From assembly GCA_964350605.1 (NCBI GenBank), contig CAYGKP010000001.1, positions 1-39,936 on the forward strand: a DNA stretch of 39,936 nucleotides. Reading direction: 5' to 3'. Shown here one piece after another: positions 1 to 23,237 of this stretch. The notes under the pieces were generated by a model. The model made no database searches. It saw nothing but the letters and a program-made list of their open reading frames with translations, and had not been told where the DNA came from. The position numbers and the translations under genes are program-made. Source of the stretch: an uncultured Cytophagales bacterium. Its GTDB lineage: Bacteria; Bacteroidota; Bacteroidia; Cytophagales; JAAEPT01. Positions within the stretch are counted from its first letter, which is position 1. Every line of letters begins with the position of its first letter.

Positions 1-2421
1 AACTCCGGGACGCGGAGTAAGCACCTGCGAGCAGACGACGAACCGCCTCTGAGTTTTGAGGTTGTCGAGGAGATCTTCGCGGCCCCAAGAGAGCTTCCTC
101 CAATTGTTGTAGAAGTTGATGTGATGCTTGTTCACATGGGCCTTCTTATCCTCCTCCAGGAGCTTCGCATTGACCTCCTCTTGCTCCTCTGCTTTCCTTC
201 TCCGCTCTGGGAGAACTTTTTGTTGGATGATCTTGAAGGGCTCTTTGTAGCTCGATGCTTCTAGTTGATCTTGGAGTGTGAAGTCTGTTACGAAACGAGA
301 CGGTTGTGAATCAACCGAGGAAAGCAGTTCGTCACCCGTCAGGAACGGCTTTACGACCTCATTATAACTTGCGTCCTTCTTGAGTAGTGCTTTTGCTTCC
401 CCTCTGGGAAGCAAGAAACCCTCATGTCCGTGCGTCTGCCCTTGAAACACCGACTTGGGGTGCAGGTTGCAGGTCAACTTCTCCGCGTTAGTTACGTCGG
501 GGCGATGGCTTAAGCTCGGCCCGATGCGATCAACAACATGCCGTTCTGGTTCCCCCTCTGCAGATTCTACGTACAGGGCTCGCTCGCCCTTGTAGGCACC
601 CTTAAACCAGTTCACGATGGAGACGTGGACAACCGCTGCGCCCGACCACTTCTGCGTCGAGACAGCATCGAAGATTTCACCCCCATTGTTGACGATGTAG
701 TCCAGGCTGCCTTCCCGGCTGTAGTTCTGGCGGATCGTGTTGGTGCCGACCAGCCCCGCATAGCTCCCCTCCTTGAGGTGCTGGTGCGCTCGGTAGTACC
801 AGTACACACAGAAGTCGGCGCGACCAGGCACCTCCGGGTACGCCTTTCTCAGCTTGTTCACGTACTCGGCCCCGAACTCCTTCTGCATCTTGTTCTTGCT
901 CTGGAACGGCGGGTTGCCGATGATCACGTCCACCTCCGGCCACTTGCGCTGGTTGCCCTGCTCATCGAGCAGCGCGTCCACGCAGCGGATGTTGCCGTCA
1001 AGATTGTCGAGGGGTAGGGGCTTGAACTTGTCGTTGTAGAGACGCTGCACCTCCTCATCGAGGATCGAGAGTTCCTTTGCGACCATGAGCGTCACCTTCG
1101 CAATCTCCACCGCCGTGGGGTTCAAGTCCATGCCGTAGAACTGGCTGGTGTTCACGAAGGGATAGGTCTCCATGAAGGCGACCAATTGCTTTCGGTCGGT
1201 GCCCTCGGTTTCTTCCCAGAGGAGGTCGAAGAGCGTTCGTTCCAGTAGCTTGATCTCCTTGAACGCGACAAATAGAAAGTTGCCGCTCCCACACGCGGGG
1301 TCGAGCACTTTAAACTGGGTCAGCTCGTTGAGCAACTTGAAGTAGTCCTCAATGGTGCTGGCCTCCTCGATCCTCTTGAGCCAAGGCTCCACGATGCAGG
1401 GCTGGACGATCTTTTTGATGTCCATCTCGCGGGTATAGTGCGCCCCGGTTTTGTGCCTTTGATCGGCTTCCAGGTTGTTCTCGAAGAAGGTGCCGAAAAT
1501 CGCGGGGTTGACTTTCTTCCAGTCCTTCCTTGCGCTATAATCGAGAAGCTCAATTTCTCGCCTTTCAAGTGTGATCGGTTTGATCTGGGCGAACAACCCG
1601 CCGTTGAAGTAGTCCACGCCCTCATAAATACTCCCTGTAGGCGCGATGCCCTCGTAGTTCATCTCTCGAAAGAGCCCTCCGATTAGGTCGTAGCTCTTTT
1701 CTTCGGAACCCAAGCACTCTTCAATAAGTCGGGTGAAAATCTTGTCTGGGAGTAGGTTCACGTCCTCGGCAAACATGGCGACCACGCACTGGAGGATGTA
1801 GTGCAGCGCGTCCTCTTTGGATACTACACCCCGGCTTACGAGGCCTTTGTAGACAGAGGATACCATCTGGGAGGTCTCGTAGGTAACATCCTCCTGGTCG
1901 CTGCGGAAGATGGGCTTCTTCTCTATAGGCAAAAGGAAAGCAAAGGCCTCCTTGCGGTTCGGGACATCCTCCAGCTTGATGACATCGACGGGCTTGTCCA
2001 TATCCCTGTCGGTATCGTAAATCCAGAACTCGTCGAAGTTGCAGAGGATTATGTATCGGGGGCGGTCGCTGAGGAGGTTTCGCCAGTAGGCCTCGGCTTG
2101 CTGGATGTGAACAGCAAGGCCCTTGCCTCGCTTCTTCATCTCGATCAAAACCCGCTTCTTCCAGACCAGATCGCCAAAGCCTGTAGTGTTTTTACTGGAT
2201 TTGATTCGCTCCTCAAATACGGCTCCTGCTCCTTTGACACCATCCTTGTGGCCCAGGCCCATGAAAAACGCTTCTAGGAAGCTCTGAGCCTCTCCCTTCT
2301 CGTCGCCCTGGAGGATGTACTTCTGGCAGTAGTCTAAAAATTCGGTGAGGTTCTGGACGTTCAAGTGGGCTCTCTTTGGGTGCTCGCCTAAAGCTAGTTG
2401 AAATGACAATAAACGTAGCAA
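1..2421 (-). CDS. MmeI-family type IIL/IIG restriction-modification enzyme (fused PD-(D/E)xK nuclease + N6-adenine DNA methyltransferase); 3-prime end lies beyond the left edge
   Basis: Absent from the supplied ORF track because it runs off the window and has no ATG start. My hand translation of the minus strand is open for 807 codons from 2421 down to 1. Motifs seen: GFGDLVWKKRVLIEMKK (D-x9-ExK, nt 2134-2172), MFAEDV, YFNGGLF, GAHYT, VLDPACGSGNFL (SAM motif I, nt 1273-1308), VIIGNPPF (motif IV, NPPF at nt 904-915). Motif order is collinear with MmeI as I remember it. The start is uncertain: TAA at 2422-2424, in-frame TTG at 2421, 2409 and 2364, and the first in-frame ATG at 2262. Confidence 0.85.
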   Translation of the reverse strand, partial: MLRLLSFQLALGEHPKRAHLNVQNLTEFLDYCQKYILQGDEKGEAQSFLEAFFMGLGHKDGVKGAGAVFEERIKSSKNTTGFGDLVWKKRVLIEMKKRGKGLAVHIQQAEAYWRNLLSDRPRYIILCNFDEFWIYDTDRDMDKPVDVIKLEDVPNRKEAFAFLLPIEKKPIFRSDQEDVTYETSQMVSSVYKGLVSRGVVSKEDALHYILQCVVAMFAEDVNLLPDKIFTRLIEECLGSEEKSYDLIGGLFREMNYEGIAPTGSIYEGVDYFNGGLFAQIKPITLERREIELLDYSARKDWKKVNPAIFGTFFENNLEADQRHKTGAHYTREMDIKKIVQPCIVEPWLKRIEEASTIEDYFKLLNELTQFKVLDPACGSGNFLFVAFKEIKLLERTLFDLLWEETEGTDRKQLVAFMETYPFVNTSQFYGMDLNPTAVEIAKVTLMVAKELSILDEEVQRLYNDKFKPLPLDNLDGNIRCVDALLDEQGNQRKWPEVDVIIGNPPFQSKNKMQKEFGAEYVNKLRKAYPEVPGRADFCVYWYYRAHQHLKEGSYAGLVGTNTIRQNYSREGSLDYIVNNGGEIFDAVSTQKWSGAAVVHVSIVNWFKGAYKGERALYVESAEGEPERHVVDRIGPSLSHRPDVTNAEKLTCNLHPKSVFQGQTHGHEGFLLPRGEAKALLKKDASYNEVVKPFLTGDELLSSVDSQPSRFVTDFTLQDQLEASSYKEPFKIIQQKVLPERRRKAEEQEEVNAKLLEEDKKAHVNKHHINFYNNWRKLSWGREDLLDNLKTQRRFVVCSQVLTPRPGV

Positions 2422-2430
2422 TTAGCAATC

Positions 2431-2445
2431 TAGCGACAGTCGCTA
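2431..2445. promoter_or_regulatory. Perfect 7-1-7 palindrome TAGCGAC-A-GTCGCTA just upstream of the RM gene start; candidate operator
   Basis: Read directly from the sequence, 10-24 nt upstream of the TTG at 2421. A 1-nt spacer cannot form an RNA hairpin loop, so a dimeric protein-binding site is more plausible than a structure. There is no functional evidence. Confidence 0.2.
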
Positions 2446-2574
2446 TCTAGCTTGCTTACGACAGGCACTCGATCAGGCCGCAGCACATCGACAAGAGGGT
2501 AAACGGGTGGGTCCCATCATACTCATAATGGATGTCCGAGAATCTAAAACCTATCAGATCGTTTTCCAGGGTTG

Positions 2575-2694
2575 CTCACAAAAGTGATCCATATGGTAGA
2601 ATTAATACGAATTGAACATTCCCAATTTTAAACCCCTTTTTGTTGCGTACAAATTGAGTGCATATCGAAACAATTGATTTATATGTAATCAAAT
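2575..2694. repeat. Left copy of the ~120-bp imperfect direct repeat bracketing the accessory block
   Basis: Hand alignment to 23119-23237 gives about 17 differences (including 2-3 indel positions) in ~120 aligned nt. Shared strings include ctcacaaaagtgatcc, cgaattgaacattcc, atcgaaacaattgattt and aatcaaat. Weaker similarity continues about 70 nt further left (2507-2574 vs 23043-23118). Confidence 0.75.
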
Positions 2695-2718
2695 TTTAGC
2701 ATTCCTGCTGTGGTACTA

Positions 2719-2880
2719 CTACTCCTCTTCTTCACCTCGGTGCTCTATATCTCGTAAAGGTTCCTCATATATTCTTGGAAGACCCTCATCATCATATATC
2801 GGAAACGACTTCCAGTCTGAAACCTTGTAGTCTTTTAGACCATAATACGGTTGTGCCTCTGAGTAAACATTCCCAGTGGA
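2719..2880 (-). pseudogene. Orphan 3-prime fragment homologous to the C-terminal tail of the 401-aa HExxH protein gene
   Basis: This is 53 open codons with no start codon, bounded upstream by TAA. It reads STGNVYSEAQPYYGLKDYKVSDWKSFPIYDDEGLPRIYEEPLRDIEHRGEEEE*. The 401-aa C-terminus reads TYPGTQPYYGLKDYKVSDWKSFPEYEEDGIPRVYAEPLPGITHP*. The gapless nucleotide alignment 2765-2861 vs 3937-4033 is roughly 75-80% identical by hand count. Confidence 0.6.
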
Positions 2881-3008
2881 TTAATAGCTCAGAGCGTATC
2901 CAAAGGGATATCCAACTCTTCACAAAAACAGCCGTCATACTTGAACGCCATCGCAAAATGGGGACCAACCTTGCTTGTTGCCTTCCCGTTCACATAACGC
3001 AGTCGGTT

Positions 3009-3404
3009 TTAGTAGACCTCGTCCTCCGAATCATCAAAGAGGCGATAATGCCAAATGCCCACCCTAACTCCTGCTCTGAACCTGCCTGTTTCAGTATACC
3101 TACACTGACAGCCAGCTGTGCTGAAAAAATATGCTCTACCCTGCAAGGAGTCATCTTTGAATCTTAAAAACGCTCCTCTGTGACGGCAGGATACGCAGAT
3201 CATCCTGCCCACATGATCGTGAGGTTTGAGTATCGGGTCATCTGTGTCAAAAACCACAAACGTCCCTTGCCTGAGTTGATTCCGGTCGATATGACCACCT
3301 TTTCTTGGCCAGATTGAAAACGGACTACATGATGACGCGCAAATGGAGATCAAACAAAAAAGTGTCACCTGCCTCATGAAGTCGGATGAGCGGATTATCT
3401 TCAT
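3009..3404 (-). CDS. Small lipoprotein with MORN-variant (YwqK-like) repeat pattern; possibly truncated; candidate immunity protein
   Basis: Track ORF of 131 aa. The N-terminus MKIIRSSDFMRQVTLFCLISICASSCS looks like a signal peptide plus a lipobox-like ASSC. The tail RAGVRVGIWHYRLF has G-x-W spacing. The in-frame TAA (3009-3011) is followed by 39 more open codons (to TGA 2889-2891) reading NRLRYVNGKATSKVGPHFAMAFKYDG..., which continues the Y-x-N-G-K repeat pattern. Confidence 0.6.
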   Translation of the reverse strand: MKIIRSSDFMRQVTLFCLISICASSCSPFSIWPRKGGHIDRNQLRQGTFVVFDTDDPILKPHDHVGRMICVSCRHRGAFLRFKDDSLQGRAYFFSTAGCQCRYTETGRFRAGVRVGIWHYRLFDDSEDEVY

Positions 3405-3439
3405 TGAGGCCAGAGGGACTGCGGAGCACTTGCCATACC

Positions 3440-3967
3440 CTACTGCCCATCACAGTCGCACCCCCTATATCCAGAGAGCCCAAAACCATGATTGTTATTC
3501 TTGTATTGAGGCTTACCACTTTCATAGCTCACCTTGGTCGCGCTACTCTCACCAGTTTTTTGATTTCGCTTCGTCGTTCTCCATGTTCCTATTGGAACCC
3601 CCTTATGATATTGCCCTTCCTGGATAATAACACAATGGTCATCTAACCCGTTAATGAATAATGCTTTCCCATGGGGAATACCGCGTCTGAAGGTGACAAT
3701 TGCTTCAGTAAACACCGTCTGAACCTCATACTTCGGCATATATGATTCTTTCCAAACTGGACCATTGCAGGAAAACCCCTTCATGACCCACACGCCTGTC
3801 GGAAGGCTGTTCTTGTCGTATTGGTTTACTCCACGTCCATAGTCTAGCCGACCACTCGCACAGCAAGTTGCTATTAGCACTGTGAGTGAGCCAAGCAATA
3901 ATAGCTTAAGGGTGCGTGATGCCAGGTAAAGGCTCTGCATAGACTCTTGGGATACCATCTTCTTCAT
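3440..3967 (-). CDS. Small lipoprotein with MORN-variant (YwqK-like) repeat pattern; candidate immunity protein
   Basis: Track ORF of 175 aa. SRTLKLLLLGSLTVLIATCCASG looks like a signal peptide plus lipobox (IATC). Repeat-like strings by eye: PTGVWVMKG, IPHGKALFINGLDD, GQYHKGVPIGTWR, VSYESGKP. The start is uncertain (ATG at 3967, 3958 or 3940), and every option overlaps the upstream gene end (3906) by 35-62 nt. Confidence 0.65.
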   Translation of the reverse strand: MKKMVSQESMQSLYLASRTLKLLLLGSLTVLIATCCASGRLDYGRGVNQYDKNSLPTGVWVMKGFSCNGPVWKESYMPKYEVQTVFTEAIVTFRRGIPHGKALFINGLDDHCVIIQEGQYHKGVPIGTWRTTKRNQKTGESSATKVSYESGKPQYKNNNHGFGLSGYRGCDCDGQ

Positions 3968-5111
3968 ATTCCGGAAACGATTTCCAATCTGAAACCTTAT
4001 AATCCTTCAAGCCATAATACGGTTGTGTACCTGGATAGGTAAAAAGTAAGGTTTCAGCGATTGGATCAGTTGGGTTATACGTATCGTATTTTGCTCGGAA
4101 GCTTCTAGTTGCGGGAAGCAAATACAAAGATTGATCAATCGTTGTATCAGGCAGCTGATGAGTTGAATCCATTTGAGCTTGTAAGGCATCGACCGACACA
4201 CCAAAAACATTAAGAAACTCATCTTTAAAGCTCACCGAAAACTTCCTATCCTTCGGATGTGTATACCACTTTAATATATCCAGCGGGAGTGACGGGCTGG
4301 CTAGCGTTCGATACTCTAATCTTGTATTCAGCTCCGAGTTGATCGGCTTATTGTAGGCCGTTACAGCGTGATATTCAGGCCAATCGATCAGCACATCAGT
4401 CAATGCTTGGTACGGATCTAGATGCCAAGTCTCATGAACTCCTACTGCATTGAGAAACTCCTCCTCACTGCAATTATGAAATCGGCTGTACTTATCATTT
4501 TTCTCCTCTACCCACGTCTCCGTATCCCCAATAGTAACGACAAAGGGCTCAACCGAGAAGACACCACCGGTAAAGCCAAATCGATTGATTTTTCTCCCTC
4601 CTTCCAAAATGACTCCGAACTTTTGTTTGAAGGAGTAAATCCCATACTTCACGGATGGATGTTCTCCAAAATCATCACCCCCTGTAATGAGAAAGTCAGT
4701 ACCTGTTGGGAGCGGAGTGTCGCCCAGCGCTCCCTCGGGTGGTTTTCCACGCCGAAGCCTAATGACCATCGGATGATCCTCCCAAAACTTCCACCTGATC
4801 CGTCCCATGGGTGTTTTGTGCATCGCATCACCGATTTGAACAACACCCTGATCAACGTCACTTAGTGGAGTTGTCGAACTGACATCCTCCTTATCATAGA
4901 AAACTAAGTTCCCTCCAGTAAAAGTGGTTTTTAAAAACCTCCCCCCCGGACCAAACTCTTTTAGACCCGTGTATTTCACCTTATCTGAAAAGACAGGCTC
5001 AATATTGGTCCCAGCCAGGTAAATTTTTGTCAGAGTCCTTCGCTGCTCAACCGTTAAGGAAGAAAGGAAGTTGTTCAGAGCACTCCTTTGTTCATTTGTA
5101 AGGGTAACCAT
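3906..5111 (-). CDS. Hypothetical 401-aa protein with HExxH zinc-metallopeptidase motif; candidate effector
   Basis: Track ORF. HETWH is encoded at 4422-4436 (verified by reverse-complementing atgccaagtctcatg). No signal peptide (MVTLTNEQRSALNNF...). It starts 4 nt after the upstream giant gene stops. Its last ~35 codons are duplicated at 2765-2861. Confidence 0.8.
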   Translation of the reverse strand: MVTLTNEQRSALNNFLSSLTVEQRRTLTKIYLAGTNIEPVFSDKVKYTGLKEFGPGGRFLKTTFTGGNLVFYDKEDVSSTTPLSDVDQGVVQIGDAMHKTPMGRIRWKFWEDHPMVIRLRRGKPPEGALGDTPLPTGTDFLITGGDDFGEHPSVKYGIYSFKQKFGVILEGGRKINRFGFTGGVFSVEPFVVTIGDTETWVEEKNDKYSRFHNCSEEEFLNAVGVHETWHLDPYQALTDVLIDWPEYHAVTAYNKPINSELNTRLEYRTLASPSLPLDILKWYTHPKDRKFSVSFKDEFLNVFGVSVDALQAQMDSTHQLPDTTIDQSLYLLPATRSFRAKYDTYNPTDPIAETLLFTYPGTQPYYGLKDYKVSDWKSFPEYEEDGIPRVYAEPLPGITHP

Positions 5112-5115
5112 ATCG

Positions 5116-8100
5116 CTAAATGATTAAAGGCTCTTCGTAGTCGTTTTGAATCCCCCCCGAGTTCACTACGTCCACCTTGAACCGGTGGTAAATCGTGTCA
5201 CTTGAGCCATTCGTGGCAGGCAAGAAATCTCCCAGCTCGTATTCAATTGTCTCTTCATTGGACGATACTTGGTTAACCAGTGCCCACTGACCGGCCTCTG
5301 TCATCTTGTACAGGTAGTAAGTACCCGACTTGCACGTACTAGGCCAACTGAGTGTGGGCAGGATCGGGTCTGGCGTCGCGTTGGGATCACCACCATCGTA
5401 GGAAATCGGCGGCGCTGGCGGTGGCGCATCATCAACAATTCGCGTCCGAATAATTTCACTGGGGATAGATGGCACTACCTCCGGCTCCTCATTCTCATTA
5501 ACAATAAACCTCAGAGCCACCAGCCGATAGAACAATGTCTCGGCATAAGGGGGAAACTTCCCTTCTAAGTCCGAGAATACATCTGCTACCGAATCGACAG
5601 AGACAGTAGTGGCTAGCTTCATAGTTCGAACAGTTCGGGCCTCCGCTTCAGTGGTTGCTCGATACATCCGGATACTCGTCACGTTTTCTTCTGGCAAGTA
5701 ACTGCTCAACTGAAAAGCGACTCGTGGCAGTGCCTGCGCTCCACTTGATCGCGGACCAATCACTTCCAGCGTCTTCAACTTTGGCGGCGGCGGAGGCAGG
5801 GCATGCAAGAGTTTAACCGGCGCACTGACAGCGGAAGGGTTGGAAGTCTGCCCATCCGAGGCGATCTCACGCGCTCTATAGAAGTACAACTGGGAGTGCA
5901 TTGCCCCATCAAGCTTGTAATCCGTGAAACGAACGAACACCTCGCCACTTTCAGCATAGCGCCGAGCCATCGGGAATGGATTGAACTCCGAAGATTCGAT
6001 CGGCAAAAGCTGTCCACGTGAGTCCACCACCTTGGGCAGCTCGGGGGAGGTCTGTCGGCCCTGCTCAAGGAATTCGAAGAGAACCGGCTGTGTAGTCAGC
6101 GGGGTAAAAGCATTCGAAATCGCCACGAAAGCTTTAGAGATCGCCGAAGTACCAAAGCCTGGATCATTTTGCGGCAGGATATCATCGGTTAGAAGCTCAC
6201 CACTGAAAGTTGGCGACTTATCGGGCGGCGGAATGAAGTATGAGTTGGCTCCGTACGACTTGAACGCACCTGGAGTGGTGTCTCCACTACCCTGAACATC
6301 CAGGTTGGCCAAGCCACTCCAGTAGTTCGAAAGTACCGACTGATCTTCCAGAGCAATCAGATTGCCTTTTACATCCTCAGCCGTTTCTGTTTCGAACAGG
6401 CTATTCAGCAAAGCTTCCTGGCTTGTACGGTAAAAAACAAACCCATAAGGCGGACGCTCCGGCTCATTAACTTTGATATCGAAGGTGTAGGAGGACTTTC
6501 CGTATCGATCCGGACGCGTAGCATAAAGCGGCCCGATTGGTGGGTCCGGCGGAATGGGGTCAACAATCTTTTTCGCGACAAGAAGGGAGGCTGGTGATAG
6601 GTCTGAGGAAATGTTGTTGATGCTATCACGCGAACGCGCTGCCATCAAAGACACTCTTGATAGCTCACCCTCACCAGGTAGTATTTGCACGCGCTGGAAC
6701 AACCCAGGGAGCTGCTGTGGCTCAGCTTCCAGGTACAATCTGTATCCGGGGTGAAAATTGACCGATACGTCTACTCCCGTCTGAATAGGGTCCGAATCGT
6801 AGTTAGCATCGACCGCATAGATCTCCAATGGATTCTGAGAAACGATCGTTACAACAGAGAGCTCTTTGGTCTGATTGGGATCATATTGACCTGTGCTCGA
6901 GAAGCTGATCCGTGCCGTGCCTTGATACCAACTCACCCCTGTCTGAGGATGATCAGCCAGTGAGGTTCCCGAGGCATAAGCGATGTGGTATAGTCCACGA
7001 AACACCTGAACCTCCTGTAAGAGACCTTGTGAGTCTGGTTCGAAAACTGTCTCGGTGATCGGATCTACCTGCGCTGGTTCAAAAATACCGCCGATGAACC
7101 TTGTCTCTTGGTTCCCGTTCTCGTCTTCGAAAACCTCTTCGTGATTGCTTAGGTCAATTAGGTCAACGGTGTAAGCTAGTTTTTGCGGCCAATTGCTTGG
7201 CTCCAGCAGGTTCTCGACCATAAGGAAGCACTCGTCTGCTCCTGGAAAGGAATACTCTTTGCGTCCTAAGAAAGTCCTATTGCTTGATGGATCATCGGTC
7301 GCTGTTTGCTCAACGGCTTTGATTTGAATCTGAGGCTCGGTACCCGAATTGAGTTGAAGCACTGAGAATACTTCTTGACTCTCGTTGGTCGATAGGACAC
7401 CACCAAGGTACTTCCCCTCCTCGCCTACAGATATCTCGGGTATAACATCTGATGATGGGTTCGTGCTGTAGTTGCGATAGAACCCGGTGAGGAGCGTGAT
7501 ATCTCCTTCACCGTTATCAACGACTTCCTTGATTGTGCCTCGAACACTGTCAGGTGGGTCCAACCGAAAGAAGAAATCGATCTTATCGGCCCGACGGTAA
7601 GCAGACTGGTGAACGTGATTCCAGAGAAAGGTCACGCGTGTCAGCTCAGGCTCATCAAGCGGCTGATTGATCCGAGCCAGCAACTCGTCTTGTTCCGCCT
7701 GGCTGGTTAGAACCAACGGCTTCTCTTTTTGGATATACTGAACAGCAAAATTAGCTGGCGGCAGGAGAGTATTCCGTAGCGGAAAGTCCGTTAAGTCGGT
7801 TTGGGCGAGCTGGCCAACCGGAGATACTCGTTGGAAGATATTAACTCCGTAGAGCGCGTACTCATGGACTCCACTTTCGGTCTCTACATGCGTGTAGAAC
7901 TCTTCCACGGGCTGGGAAGGAAAAAGTAACGACTCAGGAATCTCGATTATCTCCGGTTCGTTGAATTCATCCAACTCGACGATTTTTTGGCTGTTGTATT
8001 CGTCGTCGAATAATAGCTCTGGCTTTCTCCACTCACTCTCACCCAATAGGCGGTACTCCAAACCCACACGTAGCGGAATACTAGCCTCACTCATGTCGAA

Positions 8101-22708: not shown

Positions 22709-23118
22709 TGCGGAGATAACGTTCGATGGCGATCAAACCGTATTAGTGTAGTTCAATCGACCCAACTATGATATCGAATTCTGCCCCTAGGACAACTTCA
22801 CTATGTTAGTGTTAACAATATAATAACATTAGCTACGCAAATATCCTTACTCTAATAAGTAGGAGGCTAGGGATTATGCCTGTGTATGTCCAAGGAGGTA
22901 CACATTCAATATTGTCGGCTACCAACATTTGGAGAAGTGGCTCAAAACCGCTGAGGCCTCACTCTGAAAGAGTTGATCGTTATGAGAAAGCCATCTTTGT
23001 CTACCCTCGCCCATGGCCAGATACGAGGAGGCCATAAGCGAATGGGTCTAGTCATATGATGGGCAGCATGAAAGCTTGGAAATGATTCAGGACGTATCCA
23101 GATCATTTTTGGAGATCT

Positions 23119-23237
23119 CTCACAAAAGTGATCCGCATGGCAGAATTAGGCCGAATTGAACATTCCCCACTTCAAACCCTCTTTTTTGTGTACAACTTGA
23201 GTACAAATCGAAACAATTGATTTCTATGGAATCAAAT
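23119..23237. repeat. Right copy of the ~120-bp imperfect direct repeat bracketing the accessory block
   Basis: See the left copy (2575-2694). This copy lies 411 nt upstream (in the minus-strand sense) of the 1052-aa gene ATG. Confidence 0.75.

Follow-up and report, generated by a model that had tools for sequence, protein, structure and literature searches.

What is a second, headless copy of the end of a gene doing downstream of that gene, beyond two further reading frames? The locus lies in the window analysed here, a stretch of 39,936 nucleotides from an uncultured Cytophagales bacterium, where the last codons of a gene for a 401-aa protein recur past two small genes (Table 1). A first-pass annotation had described the arrangement as a direct repeat of about 97 bp at 75-80% identity, with the start of a 175-aa gene inside the upstream copy and the downstream copy in a start-less frame of 53 codons close to the end of a lipoprotein reading frame and 24 nt from an "island-boundary repeat". 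It had taken the downstream copy for the remnant of a second gene of the same family, and the repeated tail for a possible recombination handle.

Self-alignment of the region returned a significant repeat, and the description of its geometry held throughout. Between 2765-2861 and 3937-4033 the copies agree without gaps at 76 of 97 positions (78.4%). A repeat finder extends the match to 2739-2855 and 3911-4027 (117 nt, 77%, offset 1172), and the whole of the homologous stretch listed in Table 1 remains ungapped, at approximately 77% identity and in a shared reading frame. The 117-nt match contains 90 identities, compared to a best value of 55 in 30 shuffles of 2400-5200. In translation the fragment aligns to residues 359-400 of the 401-aa protein with 69% identity (E = 5e-15 in a whole-genome search). 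There are two copies of the tail in the 2.36-Mb assembly and no others, and the longest identical run between them is 16 nt. The ATG of the 175-aa gene is found in the upstream copy, at 3965-3967. An assembly artefact is excluded because two independent public assemblies match the structure base for base: Logan assemblies of the runs ERR3535001 (48-kb contig) and ERR3534985 (4.7-kb contig) do not differ from the window anywhere in the repeat region; the only four differences all fall in window bases 11-99.

Table 1. Features of the tail repeat, its neighbouring genes and the promoter-like element, in window coordinates unless a contig is named.
Feature	Position	Strand	Remarks
401-aa gene	3906..5111	(-)	sequence orphan; predicted stand-alone toxin-like protein
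HExxH (HETWH) domain, residues 65-293 of the 401-aa protein	4233..4919	(-)	homologous to C-terminal toxin domain behind Rhs cores
Upstream tail copy	3911..4037	(-)	last ~43 codons of 401-aa gene (…YPGTQPYYGLKDYKVSDWKSFPEYEEDGIPRVYAEPLPGITHP, then stop); holds ATG of 175-aa gene
175-aa small protein, putative immunity protein	3440..3967	(-)	overlaps 401-aa gene by 62 nt
Paralogue of 175-aa gene	2889..3404	(-)	in-frame TAA at 3009-3011; 131 codons before, 39 after
Start-less 53-codon open frame holding the fragment	2722..2880	(-)	upstream TAA 2881-2883; stop TAG 2719-2721
Downstream tail copy	2739..2865	(-)	homologous part of the fragment (YSEAQPYYGLKDYKVSDWKSFPIYDDEGLPRIYEEPLRDIEH…); 77% DNA and 67-69% protein identity to upstream copy
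~145-nt element, copy 1	2555..2694	(-)	starts TTTG-N21-TCGATATG; 134 nt upstream of MmeI-like gene
~145-nt element, copy 2	23099..23237	(-)	391 nt upstream of 1052-aa gene, the first of the giant-protein operon
~145-nt element, copy 3	contig C12		in front of methylase/BglII-like pair

The substitutions between the copies have a strong coding character. Nei-Gojobori counts in the 401 frame (codons 6-43) gave 14.5 synonymous differences at 23.7 sites (pS 0.61) and 12.5 non-synonymous differences at 90.3 sites (pN 0.14), a dN/dS of about 0.12 (Fisher p = 3e-5). Codon position 3 accounts for 19 of the 32 mismatches, and in the core, QPYYGLKDYKVSDWKSFP, 18 residues are identical despite eight silent changes. 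The synonymous excess is absent in both other reading frames of the repeat. As the differences are mostly synonymous, and in the 401 frame only, both copies diverged as working coding sequence. Their synonymous sites are near saturation. Judged by this pattern, the downstream copy apparently goes back to an old and separate allele or paralogue, of which it is the relic, and not to a recent duplication.

In its present state the fragment is closely hemmed in. Its frame begins 8 nt, by computed coordinates, past the TGA (2889-2891) which closes the extended frame of the second small protein, and the homology sets in no more than about 25 nt from the end of that frame. Its frame is not that of the small gene upstream, itself an interrupted one. 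On the other side 24 nt separate the fragment's stop from the element ending at 2694, which is the promoter-like element of the next module, and no immunity-type gene lies 3' of the fragment. A sensitive tblastn search of 2400-3905 detected no further 401-like sequence, and the fragment is thus without gene body or toxin domain. No match to it was obtained in Pfam, NCBIfam or PHROGs, and no terminator or promoter signal was seen between it and the operon. The fragment is presumably inert now. An open frame after so much divergence permits, without requiring, some residual function.

The intact 401-aa protein is no less isolated by standard searches. No model in Pfam, NCBIfam or PHROGs matches it (in Pfam, none even at E ≤ 10), a PDB sequence search gave noise only, and a single-sequence AlphaFold model had a pLDDT of 31.5, too low for use. 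A MORN/YwqK reading of the protein found no support from Pfam. With phmmer, weak matches were obtained to P0002 and P0003, which are among its Rhs-CT relatives; P0002 carries the Rhs core TIGR03696 (E = 1.7e-15). A seven-member Rhs-CT family was then aligned by hhalign to residues 65-293 of the 401-aa protein with a probability of 97.6% and E = 3.6e-12, and the same profile searched against the genome matches 4239-4502 (E = 2.6e-10). Through this alignment an intact gene of the locus is seen to carry a recognised polymorphic-toxin-type domain. Its conserved motif is NKPINSE…R.EY; one member of the family has RExxH instead of HExxH. About 64 N-terminal residues precede the domain; after it come about 108 more, a private C-terminal extension which ends in the repeated tail. 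The domain is internal and does not cap a large repeat protein of the Rhs/YD or CdiA kind.

Against Pfam, P0002 and P0003 gave nothing at E ≤ 1 except noise, and no named metallopeptidase toxin family (Tox-MPTase or other); no toxin model of Pfam or NCBIfam matches either the 401-aa protein or its Rhs-CT relatives. Homologues closer than these weak matches were found neither in a word-indexed collection of 5.8 billion proteins nor among 1.84 billion cluster representatives, and none nearer was present in 60 related genomes, JGI metagenomes, GTDB genomes or IMG/VR. A degenerate DNA pattern for YYGLKDYKVSDWK had no match in the JGI metagenomes, and no other gene bearing the ~43-codon tail was detected in the 5.8 billion proteins, the 1.84 billion representatives or the GTDB, JGI and IMG/VR DNA. 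From its domain, the 401-aa protein is probably a stand-alone protein of the polymorphic-toxin type, a likelihood that we attach to it jointly with the origin proposed for the fragment below.

Between the tail copies the first-pass annotation had placed two lipoprotein genes. Two small exported-type paralogues are indeed encoded there, but neither has a strict lipobox and the second gene contains a TAA. The 175-aa protein is lipoprotein-like, with Cys35/36 behind a hydrophobic segment at its N-terminus. The two proteins are 23% identical and their paralogy extends across the TAA; because the similarity continues through it, the second gene is a pseudogene or truncated gene. Neither the 175-aa nor the 131-aa product has a match in Pfam, even at E ≤ 10, or in NCBIfam or PHROGs. 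The order of toxin gene followed by small exported-type gene is common to this locus and the Rhs-CT relatives: on their metagenome contigs each relative is directly followed by a gene for 118-131 aa, with a strict lipobox in two of three. The small proteins of the locus show no homology to these lipoproteins in profile comparison (hhalign 0.5%). Since homology, a Pfam family and a strict lipobox are all missing, an immunity role is assigned by position only; the small proteins most likely confer immunity, in the envelope or the periplasm. Small lipoproteins as partners of the toxin domain suggest an envelope target. A crossover between the two tail copies would remove both putative immunity genes.

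The 401-aa gene sits at the distal end of an operon for giant LamG proteins. The distal block (2722-5111) has a GC content of 0.43-0.47, compared to 0.51 in the giant genes. Relatives of the operon, with homologues of p2046 at 30-37% identity, are present in seven genomes (G111, G252, G316, G540, G664, G710 and G718), where tail-fibre-like arrays or housekeeping genes lie downstream; none of the seven has a similar distal module or a tail duplication. The distal end is variable, since operon relatives at 32-37% identity carry quite different genes behind it. In the collections searched, no genome was found with a full-length second 401-like gene or an alternative cassette at this position; GTDB contains no other genome of the genus.

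The element next to the fragment proved to be other than the island boundary for which it had been taken. It has three copies of about 145 nt at 75-85% identity, and the third copy, on another contig, together with the promoter-like motif, rejects an att-site reading. A search for integrase domains among the island genes was negative, and there is no tRNA gene. The element looks like a promoter or leader, common to restriction-modification modules and the giant-protein operon which it precedes. In this genome it may be a sign that defence and competition genes were assembled in modules.

Taken together, the fragment is probably the 3' remainder, now without function, of a second 401-family gene that diverged long ago, left by replacement at a toxin/immunity locus. 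Its coding-type divergence and headless state support the earlier view of it as a remnant, whether of a paralogue or of a displaced allele. With a toxin domain encoded next to a pair of small exported paralogues, of which the second has a TAA, the behaviour of the locus resembles that of a polymorphic toxin/immunity locus. An older 401-family gene would have occupied the far end of the giant-protein operon. Recombination with one illegitimate end would then have put the present block, the toxin gene and its two small genes, before the last ~43 codons of the older gene, an event resembling C-terminal displacement, although displacement of the classical kind would have left an immunity-type gene behind the relic. 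It is in this order that we infer the events to have occurred. The second small gene is by now inactivated by its nonsense codon.

Other routes to the same structure can be drawn. Less likely than replacement, and unlikely in itself, is an internal deletion in a tandem array, in which two complete 401-like genes once stood and the second lost its first ~358 codons. It accounts for a headless 3' end no less well than displacement, and the small-gene paralogues show that genes have been duplicated or serially acquired at the locus. However, the second small gene's stop codon would have to be the exact point behind which the deletion began, the relic has no immunity-type gene behind it, and the near-saturated synonymous divergence suggests alleles from different lineages over duplication in situ, although an old duplication could have produced it too. 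A Campbell-type capture, in which circular DNA carrying the two small genes and part of the 3' end of another, foreign 401-like gene entered by a single crossover in the resident tail, would leave two diverged direct copies bracketing the inserted genes, which is exactly the geometry observed, and the homology does set in close to where the second small-gene frame ends, at most about 25 nt away. Homologous recombination through circular intermediates has been proposed for rhs loci (Jackson et al. 2009, PMC2935791). We nevertheless hold such a capture to be quite unlikely here, as the resident toxin gene would have been without an adjacent immunity gene beforehand and no other tail-bearing cassette turned up in any collection searched. 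RecA recombination also needs a minimum length of homology, and a longest identical run of 16 nt at 77% identity makes a poor substrate. The wider proposal, that the ~43-codon tail, overlapping the start of the first small gene, serves as a 3' homology handle to capture circular cassettes of tail piece plus immunity genes, is improbable. Of the first-pass reading, the remnant of a second gene is supported and the tail as exchange handle is not: its copies have no identical run above 16 nt, its synonymous sites are near saturation and no other gene bearing it was found in the collections searched. If true, the handle would mean that the locus collects immunity genes behind a constant C-terminal module, with a polarity opposite to that of Rhs and CDI, and that a stand-alone toxin is tied to an uncharacterised giant-protein operon of Bacteroidota.

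It is very improbable that the fragment still functions, whether by non-canonical or coupled translation or by acting, as an RNA or a regulatory element, at the operon's 3' end. A frame kept open over 53 codons and a low dN/dS speak for it, but the low ratio arises because divergence preceded truncation. Neither ATG, GTG nor TTG occurs in the frame (2722-2880), which also differs from that of the interrupted small gene upstream, and there was no match to RNA families and no fold of 2540-2740 better than shuffles (z = 0.69). A negligible chance is left for the variable and template repeats (VR/TR) of a diversity-generating retroelement, for chance similarity or for an assembly artefact. The layout does resemble a VR/TR pair, with a gene 3' end and a non-coding copy about 1.2 kb downstream, but only 12 of the 32 mismatches fall at A of the downstream copy, compared to the 19 concentrated at codon position 3, and no gene has a reverse-transcriptase domain (Pfam scan of window 1-30306); the mismatch spectrum rules out the retroelement reading. 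Chance is opposed by the shuffles, which never came near the observed identity, and an artefact by the agreement of the two assemblies.

The repeat is thus an ordinary recombination scar of bacterial toxin/immunity loci, of a familiar kind, in the genome of an uncultured member of the Bacteroidota. It adds to the evidence that the far end of an uncharacterised giant-LamG-protein operon is an exchangeable toxin/immunity region, and the orphan 401-aa protein gains a functional lead, an unnamed HExxH toxin-type domain common to Rhs tips.

Orphan cdiA-CT/cdiI modules are known at CDI loci. At rhs loci, C-terminal displacement and arrays of dissociated or orphan tips have been described (Jackson et al. 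2009, PMC2935791). As in such orphans, a start-less 3' piece with coding-type divergence from the main gene lies downstream of an intact toxin-family gene and small putative immunity genes, in a compositionally distinct, variable block and beside an immunity-like paralogue in decay. A homologue of the toxin domain caps Rhs proteins. Unlike Rhs and CDI systems, the carrier is a 401-aa stand-alone protein in a giant-LamG-protein operon, without Rhs/YD core or CdiA repeats. The piece retained is also the extreme C-terminal ~43 codons, past the toxin domain and conserved rather than variable, with neither an alternative toxin tip nor an immunity gene of its own. Like Tox-MPTase1-5 (Zhang et al. 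2012, PMC3482391), the toxin domain has an HExxH motif and occurs C-terminally in Rhs proteins, those of Bacteroidetes among them. It differs from Tox-MPTase1-5 in matching no Pfam or NCBIfam toxin model and in the RExxH of one family member. Periplasmic lipoprotein immunity proteins are known for envelope-targeting toxins. The collection of Zhang et al. (2012, PMC3482391) contains one lipoprotein immunity family only, Imm65. The small genes described here depart from lipoprotein immunity in lacking a strict lipobox, in the absence of homology between the two small-protein sets and in a protective role that is putative; they resemble it in encoding a hydrophobic N-terminus with a cysteine and in lying directly 3' of the toxin gene, which they overlap, just as the Rhs-CT relatives precede small lipoprotein genes.

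The tail of the 401-aa gene (3906..5111, minus strand), a stand-alone toxin-like gene, recurs without gaps downstream of the 175-aa and 131-aa small-protein genes that follow it. At the positions proposed in the first-pass annotation, 2765-2861 and 3937-4033, 76 of 97 bases were identical. A repeat finder extended the match to 117 nt (2739-2855 and 3911-4027, 77%, offset 1172), with 90 ungapped identities compared with a best of 55 in 30 shuffles of 2400-5200. In a six-frame search of the 2.36-Mb assembly the 401-aa protein matched just two places, its own gene and 2740-2865 on the minus strand, the latter aligning with residues 359-400 at 69% identity (E 5e-15) within a 53-codon open frame. 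That frame (2722-2880) is start-less as originally described, with no ATG, GTG or TTG, and the small distances reported around it were correct within a base or two. The 401-aa protein was also found on two contigs assembled independently from separate runs, ERR3535001 (48 kb) and ERR3534985 (4.7 kb), which are 99.97% identical to the window over 15.1 kb and 100% over 4.7 kb, respectively; all four differences fall at window bases 11-99. The fragment has the same structure in both, which excludes an assembly artefact; like it, every junction and the neighbouring gene's in-frame TAA are therefore reproducible.

The offset between the copies preserves the 401 reading frame. Over alignment codons 6-43 in that frame there were 14.5 synonymous differences at 23.7 sites (pS 0.61, dS ~1.3) and 12.5 non-synonymous differences at 90.3 sites (pN 0.14, dN ~0.15; Fisher's test, p = 3e-5). 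Codon position 3 holds 19 of the 32 mismatches, and an 18-residue core, QPYYGLKDYKVSDWKSFP, is the same in both copies despite 8 silent changes. No such excess was present in either other frame, one of which is that of the overlapping 175-aa gene. Differences that are mostly silent, and in the 401 frame only, show that both copies were being translated in it during their long divergence. The pattern rejects a recent, decayed duplicate and supports the earlier proposal of a remnant of a second 401-family gene; the fragment is the 3' end of an old and separate allele or paralogue whose body was lost fairly recently. Sensitive tblastn found no further 401-like sequence in 2400-3905, so the upstream breakpoint, between 2866 and 2888 and just past the end of the neighbouring frame, is clean.

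The 401-aa protein is a sequence orphan, matching only itself in 5.8 billion clustered proteins and nothing in 60 related genomes or the JGI, GTDB and IMG/VR DNA collections. An exhaustive phmmer search of 1.84 billion representatives gave two weak matches to residues 205-293 (E ~1e-4). In one of the two, P0002, a relative with its toxin domain behind an Rhs core (Rhs-CT), the N-terminal part is an Rhs repeat-associated core (TIGR03696, E 1.7e-15) and the C-terminal domain after it has GSHEVDHNDP…NKPINSEVDFRREY; the corresponding site in the 401-aa protein reads GVHETWHLDP…NKPINSELNTRLEY. Five further members brought the aligned Rhs-CT family to seven, and four of the seven start with the end of the Rhs core, …FID.(D/K)GM. 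The seven-member profile matched residues 65-293 of the 401-aa protein (97.6% probability, E 3.6e-12) and, on the genome, 4239-4502 (E 2.6e-10). This match, with the motif at the same place, indicates that the protein carries an unnamed HExxH-type polymorphic toxin domain, one that matches no Pfam or NCBIfam model. It is flanked by ~64 N-terminal residues and a private C-terminal extension of ~108 residues, the last 43 of which form the repeated tail. A single-sequence AlphaFold model of the protein was useless (pLDDT 31.5). The gene also contains a 26-nt near-perfect palindrome (4122-4147, ATACAAAGATTGATCAATCGTTGTAT), ~90 nt before the repeated tail. The same genome has a true Rhs-type gene: at G000:C2:16950-17108 (L122) the profile's Rhs-core portion matched (E 2.6e-10) within an open frame of 2402 codons, so the genome encodes classical polymorphic toxins as well as the stand-alone one.

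The two small genes between the copies encode paralogues (23% identity over 160 residues, E 5e-10), and their alignment crosses the TAA at 3009-3011 without a break, on to the TGA at 2889-2891, 39 codons beyond. HMMER on the genome agrees on the second gene (E 5e-6, one TAA inside). With similarity continuing through the TAA, this gene is nonsense-truncated. The TAA is present in both independent Logan assemblies too. The first-pass annotation called the pair lipoprotein genes; both products carry a hydrophobic stretch at the N-terminus with cysteines after it, but both fail a PROSITE-style lipobox rule, and lipoprotein-like is the label we retain. Elsewhere they have no homologues, and Pfam gave no match even at E <= 10. 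The Rhs-CT relatives on metagenome contigs show the same layout, a 118-131-aa gene lying directly after each toxin fragment, with a strict lipobox in two of the three distinct small proteins, but profile comparison of the two sets detected no homology (probability 0.5%). The window's small proteins are therefore putative immunity proteins by position; if they do have that role, the toxin's site of action is probably the periplasm or envelope. Orphan Rhs-CT fragments of the unnamed HExxH family, 245-265 aa and beginning inside the Rhs core, occur on four metagenome contigs (L017, L019, L020 and L021), that of L019 with an rve-type integrase gene just upstream.

The 401-aa gene lies at the distal end of the giant-protein operon. 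The GC content of the block 2722-5111 is 0.43-0.47, that of the giant genes 0.51, and that of the flanking MmeI-like and CBM9 genes 0.54. A few Bacteroidota genomes encode homologues of the operon's 2046-aa protein (30-37% identity), followed by genes which differ strongly from those of the window, either housekeeping genes or tail-fibre-like arrays. This operon family is thus variable at its distal end, and the toxin module is particular to the window's genome. One array (G111:C3:28000-41900, L012) has three pairs of a 585-814-aa and a ~154-aa protein, the latter 88-93% identical between pairs; another (G540:C18:13100-23300, L114) has a 949-aa protein and then seven tandem 218-245-aa paralogues. 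Their tail-fibre-like N-termini hint at a relation of the operon family to phage-tail or adhesin machinery. One window gene has a T9SS sorting domain, and a HerA-like protein is 55-62% identical to Bacteroidia counterparts, which mark the host as a Bacteroidota MAG. The window start interrupts the MmeI-like gene; the 48-kb Logan contig has it complete (L003 12691-15648; 985 aa, MmeI_TRD domain), and UDG- and MazG-domain genes come after it there. The end of the 2046-aa protein, …NDYEEPLII(stop) (5116-5154), resembles …(I/V)Y(E/A)EPL… near both tail ends (3927-3956 and 2755-2784; 30 nt at 73-77%), probably by chance; all three are C-terminal ends with the next frame or module boundary close behind or overlapping.

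The fragment ends 24 nt before a ~145-nt element, ie at the very end of the operon module. The first-pass annotation took this element for an island-boundary repeat, but it has three copies, each upstream of a gene module.

Copies of the ~145-nt element in the genome assembly (G000)
Copy	Coordinates	Strand	Position
1	2555-2694	minus	134 nt upstream of MmeI-like RM gene
2	23099-23237	minus	391 nt upstream of first gene of giant-protein operon
3	G000:C12:10597-10746 (L016 6598-6747)		142 nt upstream of N6/N4-methylase + BglII-like endonuclease pair

The copies are 75-85% identical (75% for that on C12, a contig rich in defence genes), and all stop sharply at …GGAATCAAAT. On the window's minus strand, each opens with TTTG-N21-TCGAT(T/A)TG, which resembles the Bacteroidota -33/-7 promoter consensus, TTTG…TAnnTTTG. 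There was no Rfam match, no integrase among the scanned genes and no tRNA gene. An att duplication is rejected on the third copy, the promoter-like start and the missing integrase and tRNA genes; the element may instead be a promoter/leader that defence and competition modules share.

The fragment is best read as inert debris of gene replacement, of the sort familiar from rhs and cdi loci (Jackson et al. 2009, PMC2935791; Zhang et al. 2012, PMC3482391). A block of the present toxin gene and the two small genes would have been placed before what is left of an older family member, its last ~43 codons. The geometry fits a replacement in which one junction was illegitimate, a tandem copy whose body was deleted, or a circle with a tail piece and the small genes that was captured by a single crossover; the last of these would yield the recombination handle proposed earlier. 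As a current property of the tail that handle is unsupported: no identical run between the copies exceeds 16 bases, their synonymous sites are close to saturation, no other gene in any collection searched has this tail, and a crossover between the copies would remove both putative immunity genes. The layout also resembles the template/variable pair of a DGR, a reading ruled out by the mismatch spectrum, with adenines accounting for just 12 of the 32 mismatches, and by the absence of a reverse transcriptase among the scanned genes.

As debris of gene replacement, the fragment is a scar of an ordinary kind in surroundings that are little known. The classical carrier is an Rhs or CdiA protein, whereas here a giant-LamG operon has a small stand-alone protein in that place. 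Unlike in classical displacement, the piece retained is a conserved part past the toxin domain, and no immunity gene accompanies it. These differences lead us to file the fragment as working like C-terminal displacement debris, and not as a member of the Rhs/CDI orphan-module class.
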